Shown: positions 4,249 to 36,500 of the stretch, in pieces | How the letters are laid out: each line of letters starts with the position of its first letter | Numbering within the stretch: position 1 is the first letter of the stretch | The notes under the pieces: generated by a model | Database searches by the model: none | Told to the model about the DNA's origin: nothing | Seen by the model: only the letters and a program-made list of their open reading frames with translations | IMG/VR virus record: IMGVR_UViG_3300025646_000028 | Coordinates: 1-64,000 of that record | Length of the DNA: 64,000 nt | Source: a virus | Reading direction: 5' to 3' (one strand) | Position numbers and translations under genes: made by a program

Positions 4249-4420
4249 ACTAATTCAAATAGTTTACATGAAAGACGAACCTCATTATACAGGTCGCCAA
4301 GGTATAGTTACTATAGTAGATGATGCTGGTCAACTCCATGGTACATGGGGTGGTTTAGCAGTATTACCAGATGTTGATCGCTTCATTGTAATCAACGAAC
4401 ATGGGCCTAAAGTGGACTGA
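4226..4420 (+). CDS. DUF4314-like small protein
   Basis: MKDEPHYTGRQGIVTIVDDAGQLHGTWGGLAVLPDVD pattern; AAGGAG RBS before ATG 4226. Confidence 0.7.
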   Translation: MKHHLIGKLIQIVYMKDEPHYTGRQGIVTIVDDAGQLHGTWGGLAVLPDVDRFIVINEHGPKVD

Positions 4421-4631
4421 TTATTACTTTATTCTTAACGGACATAAAGTATATAATCGAACATACGTAAAAGAATTAGAACGTATGTATTTGTTTGATA
4501 AAAACAATAAGCAAATTTGTTATATAAAAATGTCACGACCCAAGCATTACACTTGGCGTGAACTAGAAAGGGATATTAACAATGGCACAATTAGCAGACA
4601 AAATATTGTCTTTAAGAAATACGATTCTTAA
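4401..4631 (+). CDS. Hypothetical protein
   Basis: ORF overlapping its neighbours within the operon. Confidence 0.55.
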   Translation: MGLKWTDYYFILNGHKVYNRTYVKELERMYLFDKNNKQICYIKMSRPKHYTWRELERDINNGTISRQNIVFKKYDS

Positions 4632-4806: not shown

Positions 4807-5702
4807 CAATTCAAGAAATCGTAGCGCGCATGCGCCAAGACATTAACAATAAAATTGTTAAAGTTGTATCTTCAGATGGCTATCGTTATTATACCGATAC
4901 GCTTACTGAAAAAATTGTAGTGCCAATTACTACGCCAGACGAAACAGCATTGGCCTATGAAAAACTTATCATCAATGCAGAACAAGCGAAAGCAGTTGAA
5001 GCTAATGATATGTTCTCTACATTACCACGAGCTATGATGTTCGTAGGTCAACCAGACACCGGTAAGACATACCTTGCCGAAGACATTGCTAAACAATGTG
5101 GCATTGTCCCACTGTTTAAAATGTGTCGTGATAATCTTAACCTTGAAACTTTGTTAGAAGATTTCAAACTCAACGACGGTAAACCTGTCTTCGAAGAATC
5201 ATTAGCTATTAAAGCAATGTCTGATCCTGAAAAGAATCGTTACATTATTATCTTCGATGAGTTCAACACACTCATGACAGGTGTCATGAAGACGTTCCAA
5301 CCAATTCTTGACGACACATCAACGACATTTGAATACCGCGGTAAAGTCTATCAAAAGAATATGAATTGCAAATTCATTCTTACATTGAATGACAAAGACA
5401 AAGGTATCTCTGTCGTTCCAGATGCAATCTTGTCGCGTGTTGAGTTACGTTGGTTCGATCCAACACCTATAACGACAATCGCACAATGGACTAATGTCGA
5501 TGTTGAATGGATTAATAAACTGTTTAATGTCTATAAGATTATTGGTTTAACTAATATCTTTGGCACACGACAAATTAAAATCCTTCATGGTAAAACATTA
5601 GAACGTGTTAAAAATCATTTATATGGTTTATGCATGATGACAAGGACTGACCCTGCCATCTTGGACACGCTGCAAATGCAAGATGTTTTAACAAAACTAT
5701 AG
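4803..5702 (+). CDS. MoxR/CbbQ/CobS-like AAA+ ATPase
   Basis: Walker A GQPDTGKT, Walker B IIIFDEFN, DAILSR arginine finger; vWA partner downstream. Confidence 0.85.
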   Translation: MTIQEIVARMRQDINNKIVKVVSSDGYRYYTDTLTEKIVVPITTPDETALAYEKLIINAEQAKAVEANDMFSTLPRAMMFVGQPDTGKTYLAEDIAKQCGIVPLFKMCRDNLNLETLLEDFKLNDGKPVFEESLAIKAMSDPEKNRYIIIFDEFNTLMTGVMKTFQPILDDTSTTFEYRGKVYQKNMNCKFILTLNDKDKGISVVPDAILSRVELRWFDPTPITTIAQWTNVDVEWINKLFNVYKIIGLTNIFGTRQIKILHGKTLERVKNHLYGLCMMTRTDPAILDTLQMQDVLTKL

Positions 5703-5961: not shown

Positions 5962-7550
5962 TGACAGATATAACAAAGCAAGCTTACGCTCAAGTCTTAA
6001 CATTTATTACCAACAGTTTTTATTCTAAAGACAGACTAATTAATGTTGAAATAAATGAAGAAGATAAAGGTACTAACTATTATGATGGTGATAAAATCAC
6101 CTTAAGCTCTGCGTTGTTAGATGCATTTGGTAATCTTGGTTTGCCCCGGTTCTTGGTTTATTACCATGAACTAGGGCACCACCTCTATAGTAAATACTTA
6201 TTTACTTTTATGGATTCGTGGGAAAAGATTAAGTCAGGACCATTAACATGGAATCCTGCGTATCATCACCTCATTAACTGGATCGAAGATTTTTATATCG
6301 AAGATCGTATTGTTAAAGAACATTCGTATCTTACGGATGTAATTAACTGTATTAAAAAGTTACCTCCTGAATATGACATAACTAAAATTGAATACGCATT
6401 TAATTATTACTATGTCAATGGAGCACCGACACCAGGATTAATGTATAACGATCAACTTGTGTTCTTAAATTTTATTAAAGAATTATTAAAGTTACGTGAT
6501 ACAGATAGAACACGTTTCGGTAATGGTGTGATATCCACACTTACTATTACACCAACAAATGAAACAAAATTTGCTACTAAAATTATTGAGTTCTTTAATT
6601 GGTGTGTTAACAAAGGTATATTACCTAAGCATGCACAACCACCGCTTAAAAATCCTAATCAACATCTTGAAGAATCAAATAAAAAAGATGTAGATAAAGT
6701 AACTGAAAAGTTTATGAAAGCTGTAACCAAAATGTTAGGTGACAAAAATACTTTACGAGAACCAGGTGGTACATATGATGACCACTCACGTGTAGTAGCT
6801 AACGTAAAGATAGATAGTCACGTACCTGTATTACACATTGATAGTAAAACAGAATTACTTAAAGAAGAACTTGTTTATGAAAATAAAATGATTGATAAGC
6901 AAATCGAAATGATGCAAGTCAATACACAAGCTTCAACCATTTCTGGTTTATTTAATGGACGCTACAGTGATTCGTCTATTATACAACCACGTCCTCAAGT
7001 TGTTAACTTCTTTAATCCTCATCGTCTTATTGATCAAAATTTATTCTTAAAGAAAGATCATACGTATATGAATGTTAATATCTTTAGAGATATATCAGGA
7101 AGTACGCAAGGTGATGTGCATGAACTTATGCATTATGTAACAGAGAATTTATTAAAAGAAATTCCTGTTGAAGTTGATTACTATTTGTATTCTAGTGGTG
7201 AAATAAGCATTGTCAAAATAGATTATCTACCCTGGAAAGATAGTGATGAAGCACCTGATGAGTATCAAAAGAATGAAATCTTCCAACAATTTGGAGGCGG
7301 TACTAACAGTGACGCTATTGCCGATGTCATAACACAACAACTATCTGATAAATGGTTGAACATCATCATCACTGATGGTGACTTGAACAGTCTTATGCAT
7401 CGTGAAAACATTTTTGCTTTACTTAAAAATGTATTTGTCATAGCTGTCAAAGGTGATTTCGATCAACGATTACACGGTATAAATATCAATGATATTAAAG
7501 ACATCCATAACATAAATAATGTGTTGGCTTCGATTAATTTAGATAGATAA
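5961..7550 (+). CDS. CobT-like protein: N-terminal HExxH domain plus C-terminal vWA domain
   Basis: YHELGHH and NWIED motifs; MIDAS elements DISGS, GGGT, ITDGD. Confidence 0.8.
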   Translation: MTDITKQAYAQVLTFITNSFYSKDRLINVEINEEDKGTNYYDGDKITLSSALLDAFGNLGLPRFLVYYHELGHHLYSKYLFTFMDSWEKIKSGPLTWNPAYHHLINWIEDFYIEDRIVKEHSYLTDVINCIKKLPPEYDITKIEYAFNYYYVNGAPTPGLMYNDQLVFLNFIKELLKLRDTDRTRFGNGVISTLTITPTNETKFATKIIEFFNWCVNKGILPKHAQPPLKNPNQHLEESNKKDVDKVTEKFMKAVTKMLGDKNTLREPGGTYDDHSRVVANVKIDSHVPVLHIDSKTELLKEELVYENKMIDKQIEMMQVNTQASTISGLFNGRYSDSSIIQPRPQVVNFFNPHRLIDQNLFLKKDHTYMNVNIFRDISGSTQGDVHELMHYVTENLLKEIPVEVDYYLYSSGEISIVKIDYLPWKDSDEAPDEYQKNEIFQQFGGGTNSDAIADVITQQLSDKWLNIIITDGDLNSLMHRENIFALLKNVFVIAVKGDFDQRLHGININDIKDIHNINNVLASINLDR

Positions 7551-15524: not shown

Positions 15525-18500
15525 TTATCCTATTACGTTTCTTGACTGTCTCCAACGAACATATTGTCTCCATTGAATATCTTTAACTAATGAATAAGGA
15601 TTTATTTTTGGTTTACGCATACGTCCATACTTATTAAACCAATCACGATAAATATTTTCGTACTTCGCGTATCTACCATTTCTACCGTATCTATATTGCC
15701 GTGGAGTATACTTACCATAATTGTTTATATCATAAGCAAAACCACGGAATGTTGTACCGATAGAAGCTGGACGTGTTTCTAATAACTCTCTAGCTACAGG
15801 AACTTGTGCTGCTTGTTGACGTAAGTTAGTTTGTAACGCCATGTCACTTACACCTGTAACGGTATTAGCTAAACGTCCAACTAATCCTAATGAAGCTAAC
15901 TGATTTAATGCTTCAAATACACTTCGTTTTTCTACTAATGTTTTAACACCACGAAGTATAGGAGACATGCGACCTTCAAATGCTTCTTGTGTATTGTATA
16001 GAATATTCATTACATCAAGTGCACCGTTACCTAAACGTATACCAAAAGTAGGACTTAAAGGAATCCAACCATTACGCATTTGATATTTAATATAATCATT
16101 ATATTCTTTTTCTTCTTCATCAATATATTGACCGTACCAACCGTCAAGGAAGTCAGACATAAATCTCCACCAACGAGGACTGTTTAAACGATGTATCCAG
16201 TTAGTTATTGAACGCACAGGAAAAGAGATAAATGGAATGTCAGCCATTAAACGTTGTTCTAATGGAGATCTTAGACCGTAATTAAACCAGCTTCGTAAAG
16301 ATGCTAATACAGATTCATCAAATGATTTATTGTAAATCATTAAGTTGTATAAAAAGTTTGTAACACGCGCACCGTTTTCAATAAAGGTATTAATACGGTC
16401 ATAACCATCAATTAATGATGCTGTTAAACCTCTGAACGGTCCGCCAAAACCTTTAGCTAACTTACGGTCTTTACGCGCATCTGCAATCATCTTTTTAATT
16501 TCTTCATATGATTTTGAAGACAAATCATTTTCGTCATAACCTTTATAGTTTGCAAATACTTCTGGTAACAATTCAAAATTATCTTTACGCAAGTAGTCAG
16601 ACGTAGCAGCAGTATTCATGAAAGCACTTAATTGTTTTAGTAATGTTTTCTTCCATTTGTTTTTATCATCAAAAATAGCTTTGCCTAATTTAGTAAGTCC
16701 TTTACGAACTTTACCATTTTCATCTCTTGCATCTACGCGTAAACCTGCAACCCACTTGCCGTTAATTTCTTGGTTGTCGTATAGTTCAATGAATTCACCG
16801 AAACGAATGTTACTAACAAACTTAGCTGCGTCATAAAGCACATTTGTATATTTATCAATATTCTTTATTGTTATTAAATTCATTTGTTTTAATAAACGTT
16901 TTACTATAGGTAAATAATATTTAATACGCGGGCTTTCATTTTCTTTAGTTGCCCCAATAGCAACATAACTTTCTAAAACTTCTTTCATTAAACCTAAACG
17001 AGATTCAATTAACTTTGGATTACGTACTTTACTTTTTAGTTCTTTAATAATATCTTCGTAGTGCAAACCAATATTAATAATACTTGCGGTGTGTTCGTCA
17101 CTATACTTTTCATAGTAACTCATAAGTTCTAAAGAAGTCATCGTCATATGGATAAAGTCATTTGACTCTACTGTTTTAGGAAGTATTTGTGCATTGCTAA
17201 ACAACTGATACACTGTATCATTTAAGTTTCTAAATAAGAATGCCGCACTAAACTTAGAAATATTCTTAGATAACAACTGTAATTTATAAGCAAAGAGTTC
17301 GATACCTGCAGGTTTTCTACGGCTAGTGTAAGTAGTTTCCATTGCTTGTATCCATGTATTAAGATCAACAAACCCTACAATAGGTACAGCACCAGTGCCA
17401 TCATCTTTAACTGCGTTATAAAGAGTTCTTAATTCATCTATGCTATTAATCTTAATCTCTTTATAAGTCGGAGTTAAAGCTCTGTTGTCTTTTAATACAA
17501 CAGTCGGATCAATTTGATCATAGACTTTACCGTTGTATACAACCTTGCCACCTTCTTTTTGGTATGCTTCTAATTCTTCTAACGTTTTAAACTTTAACGC
17601 TTTGATTTCTTTTTCAGTAAACTGTGTATACAATTGATCTTTACTGTCTTTTTTAGGATCAAAACGTCTAATGTTGTCTACAATAGATTTATAAGCGCCT
17701 TCATCTTTATAAGGATCTTTAACAATTACTAAACGATAATCTTGTTGACGTGTGCGTAAAAACTCATACACAATTTTTAAACTTACGTCCAGGTTATTAG
17801 GGTTAATCATGTTTGTTAATAACGTAACATCATTAGCCATAGCTAATCTAGCTCTAACTTTAGAACTATCAAGATCTTCTTGTGTTAAATAACGTGGTTT
17901 ACCTACATTGCTGTCGCCTAAACCGTAGCCATCTACTGTACGCAACAGTAAAATTCCGCCACCTAAATTATTAATCAACGCATTTTCTAATGCTTTAGAT
18001 CTTAACTCTTGTTTAGCTTCTTCAATTTGTCTATTTTCTTCTTCTAGTTTAGCGATAGGATCTTCATTATTTTCGTACCATTCTTTAATACGTTCTGTAT
18101 TTAATAACGATTTTTCTTCAGCACTAAGTTTGACTTCTTCAGCTTTGACTGCTTTTTCTAAATCTTTTATTTCTAATTCAATAGCACGTTTACGATTTTG
18201 AAGTGCGTTAAGTTCACCTATACCATTCTTAATTTTATTTTGTAGACGTGCATTTTTTACACGTGGGTTTTGTAGCTTTAATTGCGCACTAGATTTAAGA
18301 TTTAAATCTGCTTGTAGTTTCTTTATTTCTTTAATTCTAGCTATGACTTCTTCTTTTTGAATCAATAATAATTCAATATCTGTTTTTAAATTACCAATAA
18401 ACTCATTGACTTTTGTTGTCTCTGAATCGAATGTTGCGTATTGCAACTTGCTTGTTAAAGCGTTTGTAACTTTATTGTAGGTATCTTTACTTAACTCTTC

Positions 18501-21500
18501 TTGTGTTTTTGAAATAACTTCGTTGTTATTAGTACCAGCTGCACTTACAGCAATTTGTACTTCTTCCATAGATAAACCTTCATCACGAATTTCTTGTGAA
18601 GCATCATCTTCTGGAGAAATAAACACACGGTTACCTTCTTCATCTACAATAAACCAACCTTCATCCATAGCATTAACGTTATTAAAGAAGTTAAAAAATA
18701 AATTGTTAGACTTGTAACGTTTATCAAAAGCTTGTTTAAAGTCAGGATTACGTAGAGCGTAAAACAGTCGTAAAATATTACTCGCATTTTTTACGCTATC
18801 AATACTATTAAAGTTAATATTCTTTGCACCACTGTAACGTTCATTAACTACTTGCACAATAGAAAGACTGCTACGCATAAAACCTATTAGTTTATAGAAA
18901 GGTATGTTAAAGCCATTAAAGAAATTAATACTTTCTTCTAAGTCTTTTTTATTAATAGCATAGTCATTTGGGTTACTTAATGCTTTATTTAATTGACTGA
19001 GACGTTTGTAAAACAGAGTAGTTATTTCATCTGGCATGTATAAGTTTCCAAACACGTACAACTTCAAACGTTCTTTAATTAAGTTCTTAATCGCTGTTTT
19101 TGCACTTGCTTCATCATCATAACTTTCTTGCAAACGTATACGTGATCCAGGGTTTTCTTCATAGTATTCTTTATTTAAACTGGCAGATGTAATACGTTCT
19201 TCTTTTATATCAAGTCTTTCAGTAAAGTCTCGATCAGCGTTAATAGCTCTACCAAGTATAGCTTCTGTAGTGTCACTACCTAAAATAATATTACGCACAC
19301 TTTTACGGGTTGTAATGTTATCTACTTTTCTAGTAAATCGAATATATCTTTCGTTAGAATTTGAATCAATACCATCATGCTTAGCCATGCTAATTGTTTC
19401 TTGTATTAAATTAGACATGTTGTTATTTGCTACACGTTCAATAAAGTATTGATCTAAATAACCTTTTGTTAATTTCTGTAAATCAACCCTTCTTAAAAAT
19501 TCTTCAGCGGCTTTACTACCTCGGAAATAATAAAACAATAATTCCTTTTTAAAGCTAGCACCTAATTCTTCTCCAAGTGATTTGCTATTTCTAAAATTCT
19601 CTATGTAGTTTTTAATAACAGGTTCATTTTTTATTGAAGAGTTTTCTACAAATTCTAAATAGTCTTTAACGGTTATAGTTTCTCTATCCATAAAATTAGA
19701 TAAATTTTCTAATTCAGATTCAGCATCCATCATTGTTTTAACAAGTCTTCTTAAGTCTTTTAAAACATGTTCTGTATCACGTAAAAAATATTTAATATCA
19801 ATTGCAGATTGTTCAGTCCAAATACGTTTAACTTCTTCAACAGTTAGCCCGTTTAAAATATTATAAAGTTCTTCGTAGTTTACATTTTCTGCTTTTGCTT
19901 CGTCTGCTAGTGTCGCTAACAAACTACGTACAGTTACTTCACCTTCAGTATTAGTAGCTCCTATAGCTTTCCAGAATATACCTTGTTTAGATTTATTAAT
20001 GTGTTTGTATTCTGCAATAATTGAAGATGTAAATTGATCTTTACGTTTATTACCTGCGTAATTAACACCGTTTTTAGATGCGCGAATACGGCCTGTTGTA
20101 GATTGTTCTAGTTTTTTAGACAACACTAACAACACTAAACGTTTATAGTATTTACGATAAGCTTGTTTATCTTCTTCAGTAACTCTATTAGTATTATTAA
20201 GAATGTCTTGTTCTTCTTGAGTAAAGTTATTAAGATATTCTTTCTTTAATTTTTCTGAAATAATAATGTCTTCACCGTATTCAAAGCTGTTAAAGTTCTT
20301 TTCAATTGTATAAATTGTATCAATCTCATCTTTAAAAGTGTCGTAATAATCTTTAAGTTTATCAACATTAAAGTAGTCTGATACTTTTTGAATGCTTGTA
20401 TCTTCAACACTAGATACATCATTACCTTCATTGTTTATACGTACATGTGCGTTGACATATAACCTTAATGTATCAACATCATTAGTGTCTAATGGTTCTA
20501 AATTATTTTCTACACTTTTTGCTAGTTGGTTATATGTGTCTCCACTGATTAATCGGTACATTTCTACATTTAAATATTCACCTTCTTCTCCACGAATATC
20601 TTTATTTAAAGTATTTTTACCACGTTGATTACGTCCTACACTATAGCTAATTAATTTTGCGCCACTCATAAAGTGTTGATCGTTTTCTACTTTATCTTTA
20701 GCAAAAAGTTCTCGATTAGCTTTTTCTAAGTACGATATTAAATTACCTTTTTTATCAATTTCTTCATCAATAGAGTAGTAGTTTAAATCGGTAGCTAATA
20801 GTTCTCGTAAAGGAGCATTATCTCCTTCAACATCAGAAAATTTTAATAAACCCATACCCATAGTATCACCGTCGTTATCAGCACCCATCATGTTGTATGC
20901 GTATACGTTAACGTTAACTGCATATGACGTGCTAAAACCTATAGCTTTTAACACAGGGGTAGCTGCGTAATCTTGAACAGGTGAACGGACTGCTAAAACG
21001 TACGTGTATGTTTGGTTAAGTTGGTACCCATCTAATTTATTAGTACCACTTTCTACTGCTAAATGTAACGCACCGTTTTCTTCAGCTAAAATACCACGCG
21101 AGTTTAAAAACTCTATACGTTGTTCTATGTTTTCAAAACCTAAAATAGTGTCAATATATTCTTTAGATTTTTTAGCATTTAAAGGTTCAGTTTTAATTAA
21201 AGTATTACCTTCTTTGCTATCTTTAACTACAATAGCGTCCCAAGCATCTTTAGGTAAAGTTATTTCTCCAGCATCAAGTGTAACGTCCACAAGATATTGA
21301 GCACGCACACCGTCTATACGTTTAAATCTTGATTGGTAGTAAGCACTATTCTTACCACTATACATTTTCTTTAATGCATTGCTTTCAGTATTTTTTACAA
21401 TACGATCAATGTTTTTATTGTAACCTTCCTTAGGACCACTTGTAGTGTTTCTCAAGTACAAGTAGTTTAAATATTGCATACCTTGTTCTCTTACATATTC

Positions 21501-24500
21501 ATGTATTTCTTTCTTTTGGTATGCTTCAGTTAATTTAATTTGTAATTCTTCTAAACGTTCTACTGTGTTTACTTCTTCTTCGTCTTCTAATCCTGTTGCG
21601 TTTTTAATTACAGTCTTAAAACCTAAAGAACGTATATTAGATAACAGATTTAAGTTATCATTGTTAGGACCAAAAACTTTATTAAAGTTATCTAACCCAA
21701 TTTTATTTATTATAGGTATAGAAACAGTAGGCGAAACATAAGTACCTTTAATTGGATTGTTATTACTGTCAACAACGTTACGAATAAGTTTACCTGCTGT
21801 GTTAAATTTAGTTTGTGTAGCCATAGCTTGCGCACTATTTTCATGATCAGCGTAAACGTATGCCAAACCACGAACATATGTAGTTGCAGTTAAATCAGTT
21901 TTAATTAGTCTACGTTCATGTACTTTATTCATGTCGTAGTCTTCTGTAATAAATTGATCTGATTTTGTTTTAATATACGCAGGCGTAATAATTGCCGGGA
22001 CATCTTTTTCTGCGTCTTCTTCTTTAAAGTCACGTAAAATTAAAACGTTATACAATTCAGTATCTTTTGTAGTGTCAGTAATCAAAGATTTAAATTCTTC
22101 ATCATTACTTAATTTATCTTTTATTTCTTTTGAAAGACCTTCTAACAATTCATAAGAATCAAAGCTACTATCCACAAGTAAAACATTGTCTTCTTTATTT
22201 AATAAAGGTCCAAATGTTTTTCTTAAGTAAGGATCTATTGCTTTAAAAAAGCGTAAGGTTCTTGCGGGGATTAATGAGCTTCCATCTTTTTTAGTTTCAT
22301 TAAGTAAATAAGCACGTATATAATTAAATAACATTTCACCGTAAATACCAGCTGTACCACGGCTATTAACTGAGTTAGCACTTGCTACAAATAATGCGCC
22401 ATATGTTTTATATAACCCTTGAATAGGTCTGACAGCTCCTTTAAACCCGGAGTGTAATCCTAACCATGTCTTATTACCATTACCATATTCAGTTGAATAG
22501 TAGAAATCTGCATCAACAGCAATTTCATCTAATGGTATACGTGGATCGTTTGCAAAAGCAATAGGTACAGTAAACCCAAATTGATGTACTTCTGTATCAT
22601 CTTTATAACTCTTATATAAAGATTTACTCATTACATTAGGCATAAAGATTTGTGTATTAGCACTCTTAGTTAATCGCACAAAGTTATTTATTACTTCTTT
22701 GTTTTTAATATACTTACCAGGATTACTTAAAAACGTCGTTAATAATTTTTTACCCGGAGCAACTTTATCAGGAATGTCTCCGTAAATATTATTTAAAAAT
22801 TTAAGGCTAGTATACTTAGCTAAAAGATGCTTAGCACTTAACATAGTACGGATTGCGTTTGTACTTAATAAGAACGGGAAGTTTAAAGCATAACGTGTTT
22901 TATATTTAAGTACTGCACCTGCACTACCTTCAGAGTTTAATTGAAGATCAATATTGTTTTCTTTTAAAAATGCATCATCAAAAGACTCAATGTTATAATC
23001 ATATGTATAATCTGCATTTATTTGATTAACAATAGAGCCCGGTTCAAGTGCTTTATAACGCGACGTTAAACGGTTATATATACCTATATAAATAGTTTTT
23101 AAATCACGTTCTGTTAGTTGTCTTTGCTTTTGATACAATGCAACTTCTGCAAAGAACTGATTACGAATCATTTCAGATATGTTTAGTACACGTAAGTATT
23201 TTGAGTTAGCTGCAAATTTTTCATGAGTTAAAGTTTTTTGATAGATTGCTTCGTTTGCTTCTTCTGCTTCGGTTATTTTTGAAGCTTCTGTTTTAGAATT
23301 AACACGTCTAAAGTTATCTTTATTTTTAATTAAAAATTTAATAAGTACATCAGAAGCGGCTTTACCACTATCAACACCTTTAGCATAGAACACTTCATCT
23401 CTTCTAACATTGGGTAAAATGCTGTATTTAGCCTTGCCATCTTTAGTCCAGTAAAATTTCTTTTCATCTAAAAGATTTTCTAATTCTTTAAATGTAAAGT
23501 CAGAGTCAAATTTAGCATCTTCAGAATTAAAATAAACATTTATATTTTTTTCTAATGTTTGAAAGCCTGCAGTAGAACCACCGTCATATTTTAAATGAGC
23601 AGGAATATATCCGTAGCGTAATTTAATTTCAATTCTATTTTTCTTTGCGTTAAAACTTGCAGTACTAACAAGATTATATTCGTCATCTGAGACACTATAT
23701 AAATAAGTGTTATCAATTGCATTGTCTTGTCGTATAGCTTTAGAAAGTACAGTATTGTGTACAGTTCGTATAGCTAAAATATCATTACCTTTTTCTGGAT
23801 CATCATAATGTACTTTAAGTCCTAAGCGTTTTAACGTGGCGCTTTCAAAAACTTCTTTAAGATCTAGTGTACTACTAGCTATGCTGTCAAACTGTTGATC
23901 ATTCATACGGTTTGAAGGTTTTTCTCCTGTAATTAAACTGTAAATAGTTTCATTACTTAGATTCTCTATTTTAGTTTCTAGTCCAGTAATACTTTCCATT
24001 ACGTTAGAGTACGTTAAAAGTAAAACATTGAGATCAGTTTTACCTGGTAAGTCTGACTCAACATAATTTTCCAACCAAGCTTTGGCTTGTAGTAAACCGT
24101 TTTTGCGATCATTAAGGTACTCATTAAACACAACAAGTTTTGTGCTTGTTGTTTCTTTAATAAGATCTTCAAAACTAATTTGACTTAGCGAAAGATTTTC
24201 TTCATAGTTTTCTAATAAGTTAAGTACTTTAGTAAATGCTGCTGTGTACTTTTGATAGTCTTCTTGGTTTTCAGAATCTGTAATTACACCATACATTTTA
24301 CGTAAGGATATTAAATCGATAGGTTTGTTTTCAAATAAGATATTGTTGTTTGCGATACTAATCCCTTTAAAGGTTTTAATCTTTAATAAGTTTGTAAGAG
24401 CTTCAACTAACTTAGTGTATGTTTGTTTTAAGTAGACTTTTAATTCATCTTGATAATCCTTCAGTATGTTTTTTAAGAATGTTTCAACAACAGCGTCTTC

Positions 24501-27500
24501 TAATTTGCCATCTTCTCTAAGTACTGTTTGCTTAGAAAGAGCTTTAAGTTCTTCATTGATAGCTTTTAAAGCGTCTTCTTTAGTTATAGATTTATTAAGC
24601 ACGTCTAATATACGTGTGTCTACACTTCCTTCTAAAAATACTTTATAGTCTGTAATTTCTTTACCACTACGTATAGCCGCAGCTAAACGAATAATATTGC
24701 TGAGTTTTAATTTTAAATCTCTATCAGCCATTTCTTTTTGAGTTTCTAATAAACCCAACTCTTTAGTAGCTGTAGTACTAGATCTTATTTCTTTAACAGA
24801 ATTTAATGCAATACTTACAGTTTGACCATAACCAGATGTAGTTAATTTATCTATTTTTTGTGCAGAAGAAATAATTTGTTTTACAATTTCATCATCACTT
24901 ATAACTTTTGCTGCAACTTCTTCTCGAAGTCTACTAATAGTTTCTTTGTGTTTTCTTATTGTTTCTTTTTTCTTTTCAATTTCTTTTTGCTTTTGTAGTA
25001 CAATTTCTTCAGAAGTTAATCCTGTTTTTAAAACTTCAGCTAGTGTACTATTAGCAGCTTGTAAAGCATCAAGTATTTCAATACTTTCTTTTATATTTAA
25101 CTCAACATCTTTGTCGTAGAGTTTAACACCGGCAAGCTTTATAGCACGTTCTTTAAGTTCGCTGCGTACACCTACACCTGATGTAGCTCCGTATTTAATT
25201 ACAGCCCCATTTAAAGTTTCATTGTAGTTTTTCTCTACACCTTTTATTAATTTATCTACATATTCAATAATAATTTTTTCAACAGCAGGTGTCTTATTTT
25301 CTAAAGTAATACCTTCCATAAACCGTAAAACTAAATCATTTTTAATTTCAGTTTTAATAGCGTCTGTTACTTTTTTATCAAAGTATTTGGTTAATTGATC
25401 TCTAAGATATTTAATTGCGCCTGTGCTAACATCAAAAATTTGGTTTTTAATATCATCGTTAAGAATATAACCTGTTTGTTCAGAAGCTTTTTTAATAGCT
25501 TGATTTATTTTAAGCGCAGTAATTTTGTTATTAATACGATCTAAATCTTCTTTAATTCTATCTAGTTCTTGCTTAGTAATAAATTCTTTTTTAGTTTCAA
25601 TTGTTTTAATAAGACGATCACTTGCTTCTTGAAGTTCTTTAATATACTCTGTAGTTATTTCATCCGCGTCTAGCTCAGTCTTATCTATTTTATTAAAAAT
25701 AGTTTCAAGACTATTTTCTTCAGATAAATTACGATAGTATTCGTTAACAATTAAATTATCACCGATACGACTAATAAAGTTTTTAATAATATTAAAATCA
25801 AAACGGAAACCGTTGTGTGCAACAATGTCTACATTTGCATCTCCAACTTTTTGTATAAAAGTATTAATAAAGTTGTCGTTATTTTTAACTTGTTTTACAC
25901 GCGCAATTAACTCGTCCATTTTTATTTTAGCTTTAACTTCAAATTCTTCAGGAGATAAGTCTTCTTTTTCCCATTGCTTTTTCCATATGCGTTTTTGTTG
26001 CTCATAAAACTTAAGCATGTTTTCTTTATAACTTCCGTCATCATTAACTCCGTCATAAAATAAACCACTATTAATGTATACATCATTAATAATTAACTGT
26101 TTATCTTTTACAGTAATCATTGTTATTTGATAAGGGGTGTCCTCACCGTTGTAACGGTACGTTTCTAAGTCAATAACAATAAAGTTTTTTGACGCAGGTT
26201 TTTGATGTATATAATTTAATAATGTAATTAAAGAGTCAACAACAGAGTTGTGTAATGCGTAGTCTCCCCTACTCTTTATAAATGTTTTTAAAAATTCAAT
26301 GTCTTGACCAGGAAATTTTTCTTGTACAATTTTTAAAACAATATTAATAACATCTATTTCAGCTGCATCTTTTTTAATTCTAGCTTTATAGTAATGTTTA
26401 AATAAGTCTAAGTTACTTAATTTATCTCCAGCCACTTCTAGTTCTTTATTATACGCAGCTTGACGATCAGCTTTTGTTTTTTCTAAAGCTTCTTTTTTAA
26501 TTTCTAAATCAGCTTTTAAAGTTTCAATGCCTTCTCTTCGTTTAGGTAAATCGTTTAAAGCTTGTTTAAAATCATTAACATTTTTAAGTTTATCTAAAAA
26601 TTGTTTTTTATAACGTTTATAGTTTTTTATTTCAAAGTTGTCTTTACTGTTTGTAACAAATCGGATTAATGAAGCCACTGTTTGATCATCCATATTATCA
26701 ATAGCTTCACCTTCAATGTCTTTGTAAAGGTTGCTAAATAGTTTTTTAGCGTGATCAAGATCAGAAACAGTAGGAACTTTCCCTTTACGATCTAATAAAG
26801 TTTTTTCTAAACCAATACTTCCTATAGTTTTTTCTGCTTTATTAATATACTCTACAAATTTGTTTGAAAAATATTCTACACTTATATTAAATTTATTAAC
26901 TAAAGCGTTGTTAACGTTTGCTAATAATGCTTGTGCAAAACGTAGTTTATCATCTGCTAAATCACTAAAATCAAGTTCAACTTGTTTACTACCAAAAGAT
27001 TTACTAATTGCGTCATAGTTATTAGGGTGTTTAATAAAATTAAAAATTAAATTAAATGCTGTAAGAGGTGTGATATCTTTAAACTGTTCTCTTGTTTCAT
27101 TCTCTATTCTTGCAGCTTCAGCATCTGTAAGCTCTCGTTTTAAGTCACTACTACGTTTATTAATTTTTAATTCGTTGAAAACAGTAAAGTATAAATTTAG
27201 TTTAAATTCTTCTTCACCTTCTAATTTAGGAAGATCAACAGCTTCAGGTATATCAACGATTCTGCGGTTTGCTAAAGTATTAGCGTGGTTTCTAAGTATA
27301 CTTATTTCATTTTGAACAGCTTTTGTTAATACATCTAAACTAATAAGTTTATCGTTTTTAACTACACCTAAATCTTTTTTACCGGCTATACCGAATTGAA
27401 CATTAAAGTCACGGATAAAACCGTATAAAACTTTTAAATATGAAAGTTGTTTGTTGTAAAGCGCTTTATGGCGTTTTGTAATTAACGCTTTTTCTGTATC

Positions 27501-30500
27501 ACTTAACTTAGTAAACGTACCTTTATCGTCTATTGCTTTAAATGTTTTTGCTAAAACAGATTTACTTTCTTCTTTAAAATCTTTAATAATTTTTGATAAC
27601 GTTTCAAGCGCTGTGTCAACGTTTTCAAAATCATCAATTTGTAAAGAAGTAAGTTCTTCTTCGTAGTTTTGCAAGTTGCGTTCATGTATAGCACGTTTTG
27701 CAGCGTACGCTGTATATTTTTTAATTAACTTACCTTCACTATCTCTGCCACGTGCATCACGTCTATCACGTATTTTATTAAGATTTTCAAATACTTTTTC
27801 TTTAATAGTTTTATTATGTAATGTTATAAACTCTGCTTCTGTAGAAATTTTTAATTCTAAAAGTTCTTCTTTAAAAAAGCTATATATAGTTTTAAGTGCT
27901 TCAGTTGGCGGCACACCTTCTCTTCTAAGTTGTAAGTATGTATCCCAATAGAAACTGTTAACTTTGTATTCAACACTATCTTCTATTTTTTTAACATCTT
28001 CAACATCTTTTAAATAAGCATCATACTCTTTTAAATATTTATTATCTGTTTTACTATTTAATTTAAGCAATTCACCTTCTTCTTTTTCTATAAGCAACTT
28101 AATTTCTGCTTCTCTTTGATCCATGTAATAATTGCGAAGTCCTGGGTAGTTTGTAAACAGAGCTTTAATAAGTTCGAGTTTCTTTTCTTTAAAAGTTTTT
28201 TCTTCTTCAGCAATTAATTTATCCGCTTCTGTTATTTTTTCTTGTAAAATAAAGGAAGCTAAATCTGCTTGTTTATATAAATCATCTGTACCTACAATAC
28301 GTTGCTTATTATCATAGGTGTAATAATCAGGTGTTGCTAAACGTTCATTAACAGTTTCGTTACTCGTTTTAATTTTTGGAATAGTAAATAATTTTTCTTG
28401 ATTTTTAATATCATCAGCACGTGCAATAGTTTTGTTTAAACCACTTTGACGTTTTTTAATTTCGTCATTAAGTATTTTAATAGCTAATTCTTCAGCAGCT
28501 TCACGCTTACTAAGTATAGTTGTTTTAGCACCAACAGTTGCTTTGTTACCATAAGCAACATCAAAGGTGTCGTAGAATTGATTTGGATTATAAAAGTTTT
28601 CAGAGCTTTTAATAAATTTTTGAATTCTTAAACCCATGTTAATTGTTTGTTGTTGCTCTAACGTAAGCTCTTCAAAATCATTTTTACCTTGTAGCTTTGC
28701 TAATTCTTTTTTCTTTTGAAACTCAGTAAGACTTTCATCTTGTATAATACGTTTAATCACACTTGTAATTGTCTTGTACTTATATGATTTATATTTAATA
28801 TCATCTTCAAATTGTTTGCTAACATTTTCAACAATTCGATTTTGTATTTCAGGAATATCTGTATGATCAACAAAGCGTGCTAAATAAATATAGCCTAAAA
28901 TACCTTTAACAAATGTTTCATTAAATTCTACAATTTTATTATTAGTAGCAGACACTTCTATAATTTTGTCTGTTAGTGCTTTAATTTCAGCATCAAATAA
29001 TTCTGATAATTCTTCTGGAGATTTTTTAGTTCCTGCATTATCTAAAATATATTTTTCTTTTGCATCACGTAACAGCATGTTGTAGTAATCAATAAATGTA
29101 TTAAGACTAGATGTATCTTTTTTAAACAAACCTACAGCAGCTGTAATATCTCTTACACGAATAAACTGGCCAGGTTTAAAATCTTTCTTTAATTTTTCTA
29201 ACAAGTCAGTCCATGTAATACGTAAGCTATTATATAATTGATTAGCACTACCAACATTTTTATTAGTAGCCATGTTTTCTGCCATCATATCGTTGATAAA
29301 TTCTTTACGCATTAACATTAATTCATATATACGAGAACCAACAAAACCAGCATCACCTTCTTTAAAGATAGGTTCATATAAAGTTCTTTGTGTATCTGCA
29401 GCTACAAGTTTAATATTATTTTGTTTATAAATAATTCCATTAAAATCACCGGAGTATTCTTCATTATCTCTAAGATTAGTATCGTCCAAAATAATACGAC
29501 CAAGTCTATCGTTATAGTATGTTGTTTGACGATCAATTTCTCTTAGTATAGAGAACCCGCGATTAAAATGAAAGTTAACACTATTAGTAATAGCATTACC
29601 TTCTCCTAGTAAATTGTTAATACTAATTGTTTGTAAGCGTAAGTTGTTATCTTTTTCACGGATTAATTCAAAATCACGTACAGCTTTTATGTCTTCTAAA
29701 CTAACAGTATAATTAGGTCTCTTTAGTACGTTGCGTATGTATTGGTCTTTATGGTAATTAATAAACCATATTAACAAATTAGCTTTAGTAAAGTCATCAC
29801 CTTCTGCGCTAGGATCATTTGTTTTAATATGTGCGTTTATAAAATGCTGAATTGTTTTGTATTCACCTTCTAATATTGAAAACACTTCATCACGACTAAT
29901 ACCAAACTCTTTTAGCATTCTTACAATTTCTTCTGAGTCTAAATTAAAGTCATTGTTTCTAATAACATTTTTAAAGTAATCAAAAAATCTTGTACTTGTT
30001 TCTAAAAGATCTATCTGATTAACTTTAAAAATTTCTTTGTAAGTTAATTTAGTCTTTTTAATTTTGTAACGCAACGATTTAATTCTTTGCAGTTCATTAA
30101 TATACGTGTTAACTTTTCCTGGTACTTTGCCTTCTTCTCCAAATATAGCTTTATCTTTTAAAGCATCTTCTCCTGTAAGATAAACACCTTCATTTTTCTT
30201 TGTAGTAGCAAGCGCAATCATTGTTTGAAGTTGATCTTGCGTAAACCCTTCACTTAAAATTTGTTCTTTAAGAGCTTCTGTTTGTTTAATAACACGATCA
30301 AGCGTAACTACTTTAGGTACATATTGATTAGAAGTGCTTGTAGTTTTCGCATATAAATGATCTGTAGCAGTTTCAATAACGTCTCCTGCAAACACAGTCA
30401 AAAGTAAACGATCACTTTGATCAAGCTCAATATTAAATTTTTTACTTATATGTTCACTTATATACTCATCGATTTTAACATCTTGTATTTCTTCTAATGT

Positions 30501-33500
30501 ACCTTCTTTTATTTGTTTTTCTACTTCAGCTTTTGATGGGAAGTCATAGAAAAACATAAGACTTAATTTATCACCACGGAAAATTAAATGTTCCATATTA
30601 AAACCGTAACGGTCTTTTTTATTTGTAATTTGCTGCGAAAGTCTTAAACGCTTTTCTACGTTTGCTAACAAAGCTGCTTCTGGTTTTGAAATAGTTTTGT
30701 TTCTTTTTTTAATTAATAATTCATCACGTGTAGTTTGTAATAAGTTTAAGTAATCAACAGCGTTAAATCCATCTAGTTGATCAGCTACTCGCTTGTTCAT
30801 GTATTGATTAATTGAAATTAAATAAGACTTAAGTACGTATCCATAAACAATATGTTTTACAATATCATCCGGACTCTTAAAGTCTTTACGTGTAGGATCA
30901 CTATTATAAATTTTTTCTGCAAGACTGTATATACCTGAACCGTTTTTAGGCTTTAAGTCTAAATCAAAGTTTTTAAGAGGTATAATTTTTTCTAACTGTG
31001 CATACAGTTCATCTAATGTAATACGATCTTTATACCAATCTTTCCATGCGTTTTTTAAACTACTTAAATGAGAATAGTTAATTGTGTCTTTATTATGTTT
31101 AGCAATAAGTTTATAGTGACGTTTACGAGCTTCTTGTATAATGTCGTAAAAGTTTTTTAAATGATATTGTTGCGCATTTAAAAGACTTATACCTTCATCT
31201 GCGCTACCGTATCTGTTGTATGCAGAGGCTTTAAATAACTCAAGCATACTTTTCTTTCTTTTCTTATAAGGGTCTCTAAAGACTTTTTCAAGATCGGTTA
31301 CTATAGGACTTGTTAATTCTTTATTAATTTCTAAGAAAGATAAAACATTTTGTGAAGCGGTATCTTCGCTGAACTGTGTTTTAATGTGCTGTTGAATTAT
31401 AGGTATAATTTTTTTGTATGCGATTTTGTTTGTTTTTTCAATGTGTTTTACAATTCCATAAATAGAGTTCTTTAATCTAAGTATTTCTGAAGTTGTTTCA
31501 GGTTTTAAAACATTGTAGTAATTTATTTTATCTACTAAAGGATCATCACCATAAGTTTTTTGCATGTATGTTAATGCTTTTATAATCTTATCAAACAGTC
31601 CTCGTTGTACTAAGTTAGCTACTAAAACCGGGTCGTTTAAATCTTTTTTAAGCTTACTTAAATCGTAACCTTTCTTAATAAATTTTCCTTTAAAGAAGTT
31701 AACACCTATAGTTTCTAAATCGTAATCACCTTTGATGCGATCATAGAAATCAAAAAACATATTATTAAGTTTAGCTTCTTCTTGTATACGTCTAAACGTT
31801 TCGGTGTTAAATAAATTAGTACCTTCACCGTAGCTCTTTAAGATCGGCACAAAACCTTGTAAGTTCTTTTTTGTATAACGTTGTTGATAAAACAAACTTA
31901 ATTTATTTAATAACTCACTAGCTGTAACTTTGTTTGTAGTATCTAAACGTTCTTTGTAAATAAGGTTTAAATCTTTTAACCACAAATCTACAATAACTTT
32001 TTTACCTTGCACGTTTAATACTTCAGGTACAGGTTTAATTGTTTCATCTCTAACAGTGTAACGATCAACCATATCAAAGTCGTCTTTATTATTTTTTTGG
32101 ATATCTTCTATTTCATTATATTTAGTTTCAGATAAAATAAACACTTCACTAATGTTGTATTCTTCTCCGTTCATAACACGTTTATAAAGAGCTGCTAAAC
32201 TTTCGTTGCCACCAAAACTCCATTGTTCGTCAGGTACAACAAAAACAGCTGTACCATCTTCTGTTACAATTCGAAGATCAGCATTTTTTGTTTGCTCATT
32301 AGCTGTTAAGTTATCTTTAGCTTTATTAAATTCTTTTTTGTCATTTTTACCAAACACATGTCTTACAAAATAAAGATTTAGTTTAGGAATACCAGGCACA
32401 TCTGTTCTATCTTTAAACACTTCTCGTCTACGATAAAGACGATCTGCACCTGTAGGATCAATGCCAAGTACGTAATCTTTTAAATCTGTATCAACGGTAT
32501 TGTTAAAGTAGTCTTGTGCTAAATCATCGTCTGCTTGCATGCGAGTATAAATTGTGTCAAAGTCTGCAAATGCATCTAACTCAATGCGTTTATTAATTTC
32601 TGTGTAATGTTTTAAAACAGCTTGAAGATTACCAATCTTTGTTGTTACTCTATTTACGTAACGTTTATATCTTGGTGTATCTTTATCTTCAATATTTTGT
32701 TTTTTAAATGTAGCTAGATCTTCTTTAGCATCAGCTATTCTTTCTTCTATGCGAGTAAGATTACTGTCTTGCGCTAAACCTTTTACAGTTTTACGATCTT
32801 TGAAAAAGATGTCGCGTATAATTTGTTTAATATTACTGGGGCTAACAATGACACTTTGTTCATTACCTTCAGGACTTTTAATCGTGTAGCCTTCAAAGTC
32901 TTTTGGATTAATTTGACTTAATTTTAAAAGCGTTAAAAGTAATAAAGTATTATTATTACGCAACACACCTTTGTTATCTAATAAATCTACGGTAAATAAA
33001 TCTTTAACAGTGCCGTCTTTGTTAGTTGCTTTAAAAGTGTATGTTTTGGGTAAACGTGTATTACCTTTGTTTTCTTCTGCTGTATAACGTTGAGCCGCTC
33101 TAAAAATATAATCCGCAAACGTTCTAAATCTATTATCGTAAATAGCTCTGAAATCTATTTTATTTGTATCTAAGTCTGTTTCAAATATTTCATTGACTAA
33201 TAATAAACGTTGTCGTAACTCTATAACACCTGGATCTGAAAACAAGTTGTACAACTCTTCAGTAGCTCCTGGTTGCTTCATGAATATTTCTTTGTCAATA
33301 CTAAAAGAGTTGTATGTTAGTAATGTACCAAACTCTTGTATTAACATATCGTAGCTTGCAACAGCTGCGGCTTCTAAACTAGTTACTTTTGTAGCAGGAT
33401 CTAATGCTGCCATACGATTACCTATTGTAGTAACTAGATTTAAAACATCTCTTCTTGTAACACCATGAATAAAAATTAAATCAAACATAGTATATTCAAT

Positions 33501-36500
33501 AGCTTTATTCATTTTTTCTGTTTGGTATTTAAAAATTATTTCTCCGTCTCTTTGTTCGATACGGTTAAAATTATCAAAGCTTCTTAACGTAGTTTTATTT
33601 GCATAGTCTTCTTGATAATATTTAGACACCGCGTTTAAAAGCTTAAACATAATATGTCCATACTGATTAGAACGCGCACCTTCTTTAGCTGACGCAAGGT
33701 CTTTAAATATTTCTCTTATTTCTTGTGACTCTGCAATAGCTTTTTTACGTATAGAAGGATTTAAACTAGCGTTATAATCAGATATGCTTTTCTTTAAACT
33801 ACTTTCAAATCTTCGAAGATCAACAGTTAATTCGTTTAAAGTGTCTAAAAATAACGATCCGTATTTATTTTTATTTAAAATAGCATGTACTACTTTATTT
33901 GTTTCTCTTACAATATCGTTTAGTTCTGTAAACTTATTTTGATCTTCACTTATTTTAAGTAAATATTTTCTAGCATCAATATTAGTTGCATCTGCTCCTA
34001 AACGTTTCTTAGCAACATTTATTAATGCACTTTTAAACATTGCAGTATAACTACGTTGATCACCGATTCGTTTAGTCAAATTAACGCGTACATCAACTTT
34101 ACCATTTTTTAAATAAAGCTTACTAATTTCTTTAGCAATAGTTTGACGGCTGTCTTTGCTTTTAATTTTTAAATCAGCAATTGTAAGCAGCTCCGGATAT
34201 TTCTTTATTAACAACGCAATTTTAAAACTAAACACATTAACTTGTTCTTCGTACTCAGAAGTACTACGTGCATTATTCTTTAAAAGCTGTAAAATGTTAA
34301 CGTCTTTACTATTTTTAACATCATAAAAAAGTGACATGTTTAAACTGTATTGGATAAAAGGTGGTAGTAAAACAAAAGGTTGTTTTAATTTTAAAACTTT
34401 ACCACGTCCTTGTGCTTGATCTCCAGATAAACGTACAACACGATTTGGATCTAACAAGAATTGTACAATATTAACTAAAGCAAGTTCACGTCTTTGGTTT
34501 ACACTGCTAGGTAATTTTGAAATATCATAATCTAAAGCAGTACGAATAGTAATAGGTCCGTACTTTGCGTCTTTAATTCTAGTAATAACATTTTCACTAC
34601 GTTGATCTTCGGTTAATTTTTTATTAAACTCACTGTCGCTAGCAGATTCATCATATAAAGAAACAATGCGTTCTTTTTCTAAACGATGTTGTTCTCTTTC
34701 TGCTTCAGCTTTATTAAAACGTTCTTCTGTTTGAACACGAACACCTTCATCTTCAGGTGTAAGATCATCTTCCGCGTTCATTTTAAAACGTACAATAGAT
34801 GCGTCGCGTAAACCTTTAATGTCAGGTTCAGCAATATTAATTAATTCATCAACAAATTCTGACTCCATTAAGTCATTAACAATACTTGTAGCAATTGCTT
34901 TATTTTTTAAAGCCTGTTGTATATCGTATTTAGAAATATCGTCAGGTAATATTTCACTTATACTAGAGCGTTTAAATAAAGTAAGTTTGTTTTTATCGTG
35001 GTCAACGTAATCATATAAATATGTTTTAACATATCTATAGATAGGAGTATTTTTTAAATTAATTTCAAATCTATTTCTAATATCATCAAGTAATTCTTTT
35101 TGATAGTTAGTTAAGTCGTTTGTTGTTTTTGCAAAATCATCATCAAGTTCTTTTAATAACTCCGCTGCTTTTTTAAATGCCAAAACAATAGGATTAGTAC
35201 TGCTGTTTAAATCTGTTTTGTTTTTATACAACTTCATTTGTTCTTGCATAACATAACGATAAAGCATGCTTGTTGTTAAATTATCTGCAAGAATTGTTGT
35301 AGTGCTTGTAGTTTTTATTTGACTTACAGCTTCAATAGATGCGTATATCTTTCTAAGCGTATACGATTCAAGTAGTTTATCTTTATCTGCTTGATCTAAA
35401 TTAGATTCATTAATGTAGGCAACTAATGTTTTAACACGGTTAGCTTTAGATAATGCGGTCCATTGTTTTAAGTCAATATCAAAAAACTTGTGGTTAAAGT
35501 TTAATAAGTCTTCAAACACGTCTTTACCTAAATACTGATTTAAAAGTTTATTAACTTGTGTTTGAAAATTATCTTTTAATACAATACCAACATCGTTTAT
35601 TTCTTTAGCATTTTTATAGATATCAATAAAAAATTCTTTTGTAATGTTTTCATTAACATCAACGGTAACTTTTTTACCGTTTGCATCTGTATAATCAATT
35701 TGAAATTTAATTCCATTTAAAAAATTAACGCGTTGAATTTCATTCATTACTTCTAAAGCACGATCTAATTTATCGTTAACAAACCCAGCTATAAGTTTAG
35801 TAGGGTCTTTTTCTCCAGCACGAATACGTTTTTGCAGTGCTCGATAATCTTCTCGATTAATTTGAATCTTACCTTTAATACGTTTGTTACCTGAAGTATA
35901 ACCTTCTAATTCTTTTCTTGCAGTTTCAAGTTTATCAAGCTTTGCAATAACAGCATCAATATCTTTTTTAATAGTTTGATAACCAGCATCGTTGTTTAAA
36001 TATTCAATATCAAATTTACTTTCTAGTTCTTTTTGTTTTGTTTGAAGATCAGTAAGTTTTTTGTTTTCATCTTCAATGTCAGATTTAGTTTTAGTTAATT
36101 TGCCATCTAATTTTTTAAATTCTAGTTCTAAAGATTCGCTAGCCTTTTGTGGAATCAAATCATTGATATACGCTCTAAATGCATACAGCATACTTAATGT
36201 ATTGATTGCATAATCATCTGCACGTATGGTAGCTAGGTTTAAAATGTTTAATGCGCTTTCGTAATATGTAATATATTTTTCGTACACAAGATCATTTTTA
36301 ATCATCATTTCATAATCTAAAAATGCTGCGCTTAAAGCGTTACGACGCAATGTTTGATCTTTCGAAAGATTTGTTTCGCCACGTAATTTGTTTAATTCGT
36401 CAAGGTACTGATCTTTGTTAGCCTCCGTAATTGTTATAGCGGCTTGATTACCAATTTTTACATCAACTGCTCTCATTGTAAAACTACGTCTATGATTACG

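Follow-up and report, generated by a model that had tools for sequence, protein, structure and literature searches.

A conserved, highly diverged DnaQ-like exonuclease module with a proposed permuted ExoIII motif in a giant phage protein

The DnaQ-like DEDDh exonucleases, represented for comparison here by the PolC exonuclease (2p1j), E. coli epsilon (1j53), RNase T, ExoI, oligoribonuclease, TREX1/2 and the phage enzyme DexA, share a set of motifs in which the D-x-E of ExoI lies on strand beta1, ExoII starts the helix after beta4, and the His-x4-Asp helix of ExoIII canonically forms the end of the domain. DEDDh modules also occur fused to larger nucleic-acid enzymes, as in Cas2-DEDDh (8fyc) and the N-terminal exonuclease of Staphylococcus aureus DinG (9ii8/8zef). 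The present analysis concerns a domain of this kind inside P0001, a giant protein encoded by the virus of IMG/VR record IMGVR_UViG_3300025646_000028 (72,764 bases), of which positions 1 to 64,000 constitute the window, the whole stretch of DNA that was analysed. What this phage protein contains is a genuine DnaQ-like exonuclease module, both conserved and strongly diverged, for which a permuted ExoIII motif is proposed.

Like the DEDDh enzymes, the phage domain has the D-x-E of ExoI on beta1, an ExoII motif (H-N-G-x2-F-D) where the helix after beta4 begins, and an H-x4-D helix. Unlike them, it has the H-x4-D helix before ExoI, carries a helical insert of ~55 residues between beta3 and beta4, goes unrecognised by Pfam models and is embedded in a chain of 7,903 amino acids (aa). 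Cas2-DEDDh and DinG, which match the phage domain at Z 5.0–5.5, differ from it in motif order and in the fusion partner, which is an integrase complex or a helicase in their case and an RNA polymerase (RNAP)-like giant protein in the phage.

The virion RNAPs of phages offer a second comparison. The virion RNAP of N4, the two-barrel RNAP gp66 of the crAss-like phage phi14:2 and the tape-measure-fused RNAP of P23-45 are similarly very large, have a polymerase motif and lie in a structural-gene setting, and they serve as an analogy for delivery of a giant protein with the DNA. However, P0001 has no sequence similarity to them in searches of Pfam, PHROGs and PDB sequences. A DEDDh exonuclease coupled to an RNA-synthesising enzyme is known from coronaviruses, as nsp14 ExoN. 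To our knowledge, this is the sole functional precedent that can be named for transcript proofreading, one of the roles suggested in a preliminary description of this DNA. In contrast to the phage domain, nsp14 ExoN serves an RNA-dependent polymerase, as a separate subunit, in a eukaryotic virus.

Passages of five published texts bear on these comparisons (PMC7886860, PMC5512222, PMC2628886, PMC3985635 and PMC13434306). The passages of the N4 paper contain none of the terms ‘exonuclease’, ‘nuclease’ and ‘RNase H’; those of the crAss-like genomics paper contain neither ‘exonuclease’ nor ‘DnaQ’, and its supplementary domain tables might list nucleases. In the passages of the polyvalent-protein paper, whose supplementary domain tables might likewise list nucleases, ‘exonuclease’ appears once, in a reference title. 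Likewise, ‘permut’ and ‘circular’ are absent from the passages of the RNase H-like superfamily survey. Searches of the main texts of the literature found no virion RNA polymerase or ejection protein that was reported to carry a DEDD exonuclease.

The core of the domain, residues 4318–4520, was modelled with AlphaFold (203 residues; predicted local distance difference test score, pLDDT, 79.8; predicted template modelling score 0.70). Fold searches with a longer model (439 residues, pLDDT 75.5) were dominated by a helical hairpin, with the PolC exonuclease only at rank 32, and the core was therefore folded alone. Compared by VIA-align with 48,161 PDB representative chains, the core model found the PolC exonuclease as its top match (2p1j_B; Z 6.1, root-mean-square deviation 3.8, 103 residues aligned, 20 % identity), and only 5 of the chains reached a Z of at least 5. 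All seven of the listed matches that align at least 100 residues are exonuclease domains or polymerases, namely 2p1j_B, Cas2-DEDDh 8fyc_K, DinG 9ii8_A, the polymerase 9qpc_A, epsilon 1j53_A and 5fku_D, and REXO2 6n6i_A. Foldseek put the PolC exonuclease in its top rows, at E 4.6e-3 and 6e-3 and with a probability of 1.00 for chain B, together with RNase T, Maelstrom, TREX2 and a DnaQ domain (0.96), and after re-alignment of the top 1,000, DEDD-type folds made up 48 of the 50 entries listed. In BFVD, phage entries named ‘Exonuclease’ were matched at probability 0.98, none of them at E ≤1e-3. The core superposes on DEDDh enzymes over 103–113 residues at 13–23 % identity, and the matches cover only beta1 through the ExoII helix (for example epsilon 7–118 and PolC 357–462). 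Four strands are modelled in the core, in the RNase H-like order beta1–beta2–beta3–helix–beta4–helix. The structural matches thus predict an RNase H-like fold and, together with the conservation described below, bear out the DnaQ/DEDD exonuclease fold that the preliminary description had placed in the giant protein.

Profile comparison and a language-model search agree with the structural matches. By hhalign, the family profile aligns with P0021, a protein of 210 residues, at 96.8 % probability (E 2.6e-10), and with an alignment of five Escherichia coli DEDDh enzymes plus P0021 at 92.8 % (P 4.1e-7). In the latter ExoI and ExoII are in register, VIDLET being paired with VLDTET of DnaQ and ExoI standing on DnaQ D12/E14. 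Both motifs stay in register when P0021 is left out of the canonical alignment (P 0.0062 for ExoI, 0.35 for ExoII), and the reversed-query control gives P 0.85. Comparisons with single E. coli enzymes are weak (P 0.0022 to 0.48). In a protein-language-model search, PF00929 clusters account for 22 of the 30 named matches, with a top score of 0.93. Run against PDB sequences, the family profiles gave weak matches only, which fall on the ExoII stretch in archaeal family B polymerases (best E 0.013) and in TREX1/2. There is little doubt that the core has a DnaQ-like fold, in a family that has diverged beyond the reach of current profile libraries.

The family itself is small. A word-indexed search yielded five giant homologues with 43–63 % identity in the exonuclease region, and an exhaustive profile search, run over 1.84 billion representative proteins, yielded 17 matches at E ≤0.001, among them the query and P0005, which the word-indexed search had already returned. 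The remaining profile matches are more giants, shorter open reading frames (ORFs) and P0021, reached at E 3.9e-4. By our own reading of its motifs, P0021 carries the three DEDDh motifs in canonical order; it has no relatives in a collection of 5.8 billion proteins, so no profile could be built from it. A tblastn search of the exonuclease-like domain against 50,697 phage records found no match. Further homologue searches in IMG/VR and in Joint Genome Institute (JGI) metagenomes gave only one locus each, so the alignments stayed at 17–19 sequences. The homologues include proteins of 5,689–7,998 aa.

The ExoI motif NFIVIDLETY (D4356, E4358) and the ExoII motif DIVAHNGFRFDF (D4480) have the residue numbers and nucleotide ranges first given for them, and their acidic residues do not change in any homologue that covers them. 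In the 17-sequence family alignment, D4356 is kept in 14 of 14 and E4358 in 16 of 16 covering sequences, H4474, G4476, F4479 and D4480 are each present in 17 of 17, and N4475 in 15. Only four acidic columns are conserved in all covering sequences, these three and D4334 (13/13), and only two His columns, H4329 (13/13) and H4474. D4356 and D4480 are 124 residues apart. Nine giants that are only 28–63 % identical share D4356, E4358, D4480, H4329 and D4334 without variation; their invariant residues also include N4330, T4359, H4474, G4476, F4479, N4498 and Y4500. The acidic residues named at the outset are thus invariant. The motifs also occur together, in one order, in all ten giants in which order was compared: the H-x4-D helix, ExoI 26–38 residues on, ExoII, and then G[AG]DNDGD some 1,600–1,750 residues after ExoII. 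Judged from sequence, the ExoI and ExoII motifs are beyond chance.

What completes the catalytic set is a separate matter. No conserved H-x4-D is found downstream of ExoII, so that the canonical DEDDh position of ExoIII is unfilled, and because the structural alignments end right after the ExoII helix, the C-terminal third of the fold is left without an in-order counterpart. On balance, the domain is read here as a circularly permuted DEDDh-type 3′–5′ exonuclease, spanning residues about 4322–4510, with a complete but reordered catalytic set. The ExoIII helix, canonically the end of the domain, would have moved ahead of ExoI by circular permutation. The candidate is contained in LHNSVVDSLITLLNY, which holds H4329-x4-D4334, and the D-x-E of ExoI starts 27 residues past H4329. 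In the 203-aa model, a construct without the other N-terminal helices, this upstream helix has a pLDDT of 77–90. A matrix built from the upstream helix finds the true ExoIII as its best window, with H and D in register, in all five E. coli DEDDh enzymes, and places the ExoIII window of P0021 4th of 190. A matrix for the reverse test, made from six genuine ExoIII motifs, puts the upstream helix 1st of 7,883 windows in P0001, and first as well in seven of nine giants and in P0011, P0013 and P0022. A phmmer search of PDB sequences with the 33-residue upstream helix segment found no match. Going by its title, which speaks of ‘cyclized versions’ of epsilon, PDB entry 2gui suggests that the termini of the epsilon fold can be joined, as circular permutation needs.

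Several observations weigh against this reading. The structural scores are modest, with a best Z of 6.1, where a VIA-align Z below 8 can reflect a common arrangement, and with no Foldseek match at E 1e-3. The best Pfam match of the domain is PF10108 at 16.5 bits (also 14.2) against a cut-off of 24; of 19 family members, just one matches any exonuclease family when E is relaxed to 1, and PF00929 is absent from the Pfam scans of the domain and family and from the search of the whole virus record. No beta5 strand is present in either model. The matrix signal comes mostly from the H and D columns, without which the ranks of the ExoIII windows are 1/223, 13/195, 49/161, 48/455, 16/200 and 67/190. 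The score of the reverse matrix is reached by 83 of 300 whole-protein shuffles, and the only notable thing about the top window appears to be its place, beside ExoI and on invariant residues. ExoII too has the H-x4-D spacing, and is the runner-up window in DnaQ and the third in RNase T. P0020 has a Tyr at the position of D4334. The second hhalign alignment, which places H4329 on DnaQ H162 and D4334 on D167, is not significant (P 0.81). In addition, the literature searched holds no published precedent for a permuted DEDD exonuclease, and what points to virion delivery is solely the position of the gene. With these points counted, H4329-x4-D4334 is still the best ExoIII candidate, and the permuted reading is held with slightly more belief than doubt.

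The idea that the upstream helix is the leftover ExoII of a duplicated domain was rejected. Listed ExoII windows came from two enzymes, DnaQ and RNase T, and in both of them ExoIII scores higher; the models have no strands ahead of the upstream helix.

The rival that survives best, which is nevertheless thought unlikely, is that of a degenerate exonuclease-like fold in which ExoIII and catalysis have been lost, leaving a module that binds 3′ ends of nucleic acids or a structural module of an ejected protein. Such a loss would suit a domain whose canonical C-terminal third is not found in order, which passes no Pfam threshold, and for which no beta5 is modelled. Maelstrom is among the structural matches, and inactive DnaQ-like domains are known, Maelstrom being an example. 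However, the three canonical carboxylates and the H-x4-D pair are invariant in sequences as little as ~28 % identical, which is hard to explain without catalysis. As for beta5, the stretch LIVNEYYRNL is modelled as a low-confidence helix (pLDDT <50 in the 439-residue model, 61–70 in the 203-residue model), N4498 and Y4500 within it are each kept in 16 of 17 sequences of the family alignment, and the hhalign alignment to P0021 runs through YYDTL of that protein in this region. The models may thus miss a fifth strand here.

A DEDDy-type exonuclease in normal order is rather less probable still. Here ExoIII would be Y4590-x3-D4594, in the motif GYILND past a helical hairpin of ~65 residues, and the upstream helix would be decoration. 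D4594 is invariant in nine giants and Y4590 in eight of the nine, and D4594 stands 114 residues downstream of D4480, a spacing like that between ExoII and ExoIII in family B polymerase exonucleases; the weak Pfam and PDB sequence matches are likewise to PolB-type exonucleases. Across the 17-sequence alignment, however, D4594 is kept in only 9 of 15 sequences and is acidic in 11 of 15, with distant members reading NIIVNAE (P0022), GYITNV (P0024), GIPVNTA and GALKDRK, so that the Y-x3-D motif is absent in P0022 and P0024. Moreover, the pLDDT at GYILND is 67–69 in the 439-residue model, and all long structural matches are DEDDh-type enzymes.

It is very improbable that the motifs are fortuitous resemblances within a helical giant protein that has no exonuclease-related domain: no database family passes its threshold and the structural Z values stay below 8, but profile–profile comparison, structure, language-model features and conservation converge, with both motifs in register. 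Least credible is the arrangement favoured in the preliminary description, a DnaQ domain split by a helical insertion of ~600–640 aa and completed by a distal string (H5143, D5145/D5146), for although that string is present, Y5144 is invariant in eight giants and the intervening region is helix-like by composition, only 2 of 6 close homologues have a His at position 5143 (the six read H, V, H, M, W, F), the matrix of genuine ExoIII motifs places this window 636th of 7,883, and by BLAST residues 4674–5376 of P0001 have no similarity to the most distant giant, P0009, though the exonuclease core still matches.

Under the preferred, permuted reading, the predicted active site would consist of H4329 and D4334 (ExoIII), D4356 and E4358 (ExoI), and D4480 (ExoII). 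An intact set of DEDDh residues entails two-metal hydrolysis that starts at a free 3′ end of a single strand. This is the chemistry predicted for the domain, and the permuted domain is probably catalytically active.

Table 1. Position of the exonuclease-like domain, its motifs and other features in the window
Feature	Residues of P0001	Nucleotides	Strand	Basis or remark
Giant ORF P0001 (7,903 aa/codons)		15525..39236	minus	Exonuclease-like domain inside
Conserved helical segment N-terminal to module	4262–4321	26274..26453	minus	Model helices, conservation
Proposed relocated ExoIII helix LHNSVVDSLITLLNYIHQ	4329–4345	26202..26252	minus	Conservation, model, matrix tests
H of proposed ExoIII	4329	26250–26252	minus	
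D of proposed ExoIII	4334	26235–26237	minus	
ExoI NFIVIDLETY (D4356, E4358), strand beta1	4351–4360	26157..26186	minus	String located, conservation, hhalign
ExoII DIVAHNGFRFDF, beta4 and H4474, N4475, D4480	4470–4481	25794..25829	minus	String located, conservation, profile matches, hhalign
LIVNEYYRNL, possible beta5 equivalent	4495–4504	25725..25754	minus	Conservation, hhalign
Long helical hairpin past core	4524–4588	25473..25667	minus	Helices at model residues 263–287 and 294–327
GYILND, rival ExoIII candidate (Y4590-x3-D4594)	4589–4594	25455..25472	minus	Conservation in close giants
Distal string STLDL...GNDIL of the preliminary description	5122–5154	23775..23873	minus	Present; outside the exonuclease domain as read here
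GADNDGDT, RNAP-type metal-binding motif (lead)	6118–6125	20862..20885	minus	10/10 giants

For the claim that the exonuclease is fused upstream of an RNAP there are two leads. A polymerase-type motif, MGADNDGDTMG at residues 6117–6127, does follow in the same chain and is conserved as G[AG]DNDGD in all ten giants. The identity of this region as RNAP-like is a lead from its motif; a language-model search adds PF00623 (Rpb1 domain 2) clusters at a score of 0.87, under the 0.9 line. Sequence searches found no RNAP in Pfam, PHROGs or PDB sequences; those in Pfam and PHROGs, made with the two halves of P0001, gave no relevant match. In the proposed arrangement, the core would be followed by the helical hairpin, a long helical region and then, about 1,760 residues on, GADNDGD, all in one chain.

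The gene for P0001 is the inner end of a structural arm with portal, major head and tail-fibre genes, and the plus-strand arm that converges on it contains a helicase and a family A DNA polymerase. From its place at the end of the structural arm, we infer that the giant protein may be packaged and ejected; if it is ejected, the nuclease would reach the cell ahead of all phage gene expression, and could work where the DNA enters, at a very early point of the infection. Three roles are possible, each unproven. The first in rank is that the domain trims 3′ ends, whether of DNA or of RNA, at the incoming genome or in the complex that carries out early transcription; the second is an early attack on host or defence-related nucleic acids; the third is that of a binding module without catalysis. 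It is a tentative idea, doubtful as it stands, that a permuted DEDDh exonuclease and a two-barrel RNA polymerase enter the cell as one molecule, in a single ejected giant protein. In such a protein the nuclease might service the polymerase, by 3′ trimming of RNA or of the template, or it might degrade host nucleic acids ahead of any phage gene expression. The roles raised in the preliminary description, namely proofreading, resection of the entering DNA end and action against host defence, are speculative. That resection exposes an inward-reading single-stranded template was rejected by reasoning only: a 3′–5′ nuclease at a duplex end leaves the 5′-terminal strand.

Several segments around the core are conserved or helical. 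The segment N-terminal to the module is modelled as helices at model residues 2–61, with pLDDT mostly 77–92, and has G4270, N4275 and Y4282/Y4283 conserved. A long coiled coil had been described after ExoII; in the 439-residue model, the region is indeed helical, beginning with the ExoII helix and running as far as residue ~4700, and its extension to about 5100 comes from a composition heuristic, by which the stretch is rich in helix formers and poor in Pro and Gly. Residues about 5100–5400 (23000–23940, minus strand), which hold the distal string, are conserved and apparently of mixed alpha/beta character, with invariant residues that include G5104, D5184, Y5208, Y5210, F5261, Y5262 and D5289. 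They probably make up a domain of their own, lying after the helical region and before the polymerase part. Near the other end of the protein, in its Gly/Ala-rich N-terminal part, residues 185–269 (38430–38684, minus strand) weakly match, in Pfam, the translocation (T) domain of diphtheria toxin, at 15.8 bits where the cut-off is 27 (E 0.018).

The portal protein (61704–63443, minus strand) has its only matches among the 50,697 phage records in the Paenibacillus podophages SV21 and API480, at ~26 % identity. With these as its nearest named relatives, the phage is, by its portal, distant from named lineages, the crAss-like ones included, and belongs to a little-known lineage. Some relatives of P0001 are much shorter than the giants. 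P0024, of 1,252 aa, lies on an NCBI contig of 1.42 Mb and has the exonuclease-like module; its C-terminal end is a piece of the Pfam family Y2_Tnp (IS91-type transposase; E 9.4e-13). It looks like a copy interrupted by an insertion sequence in a cellular genome, perhaps a prophage remnant; a search of the GTDB representative genomes did not find it. P0011, P0017 and P0027 are relatives of 424–956 aa on contigs of 14–79 kb, and because of these lengths the giant gene in their phages may be divided into pieces, contain a frameshift or use a different genetic code.

Pfam does not see the family, which has so far been met only in a small and rare group of phages, to which the 17 profile matches belong. 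If the domain is inactive, it is only a diverged fossil of the fold in a giant structural protein. If the permuted reading is true, a permuted topology is added to one of the best-studied nuclease folds, and if the RNAP lead also holds, this would be the first nuclease module found in one chain with a phage virion-type RNA polymerase in the literature searched. The five candidate residues (H4329, D4334, D4356, E4358 and D4480), together with a construct of ~200–440 residues, would then make the action of an injected nuclease in the first seconds of infection directly testable.

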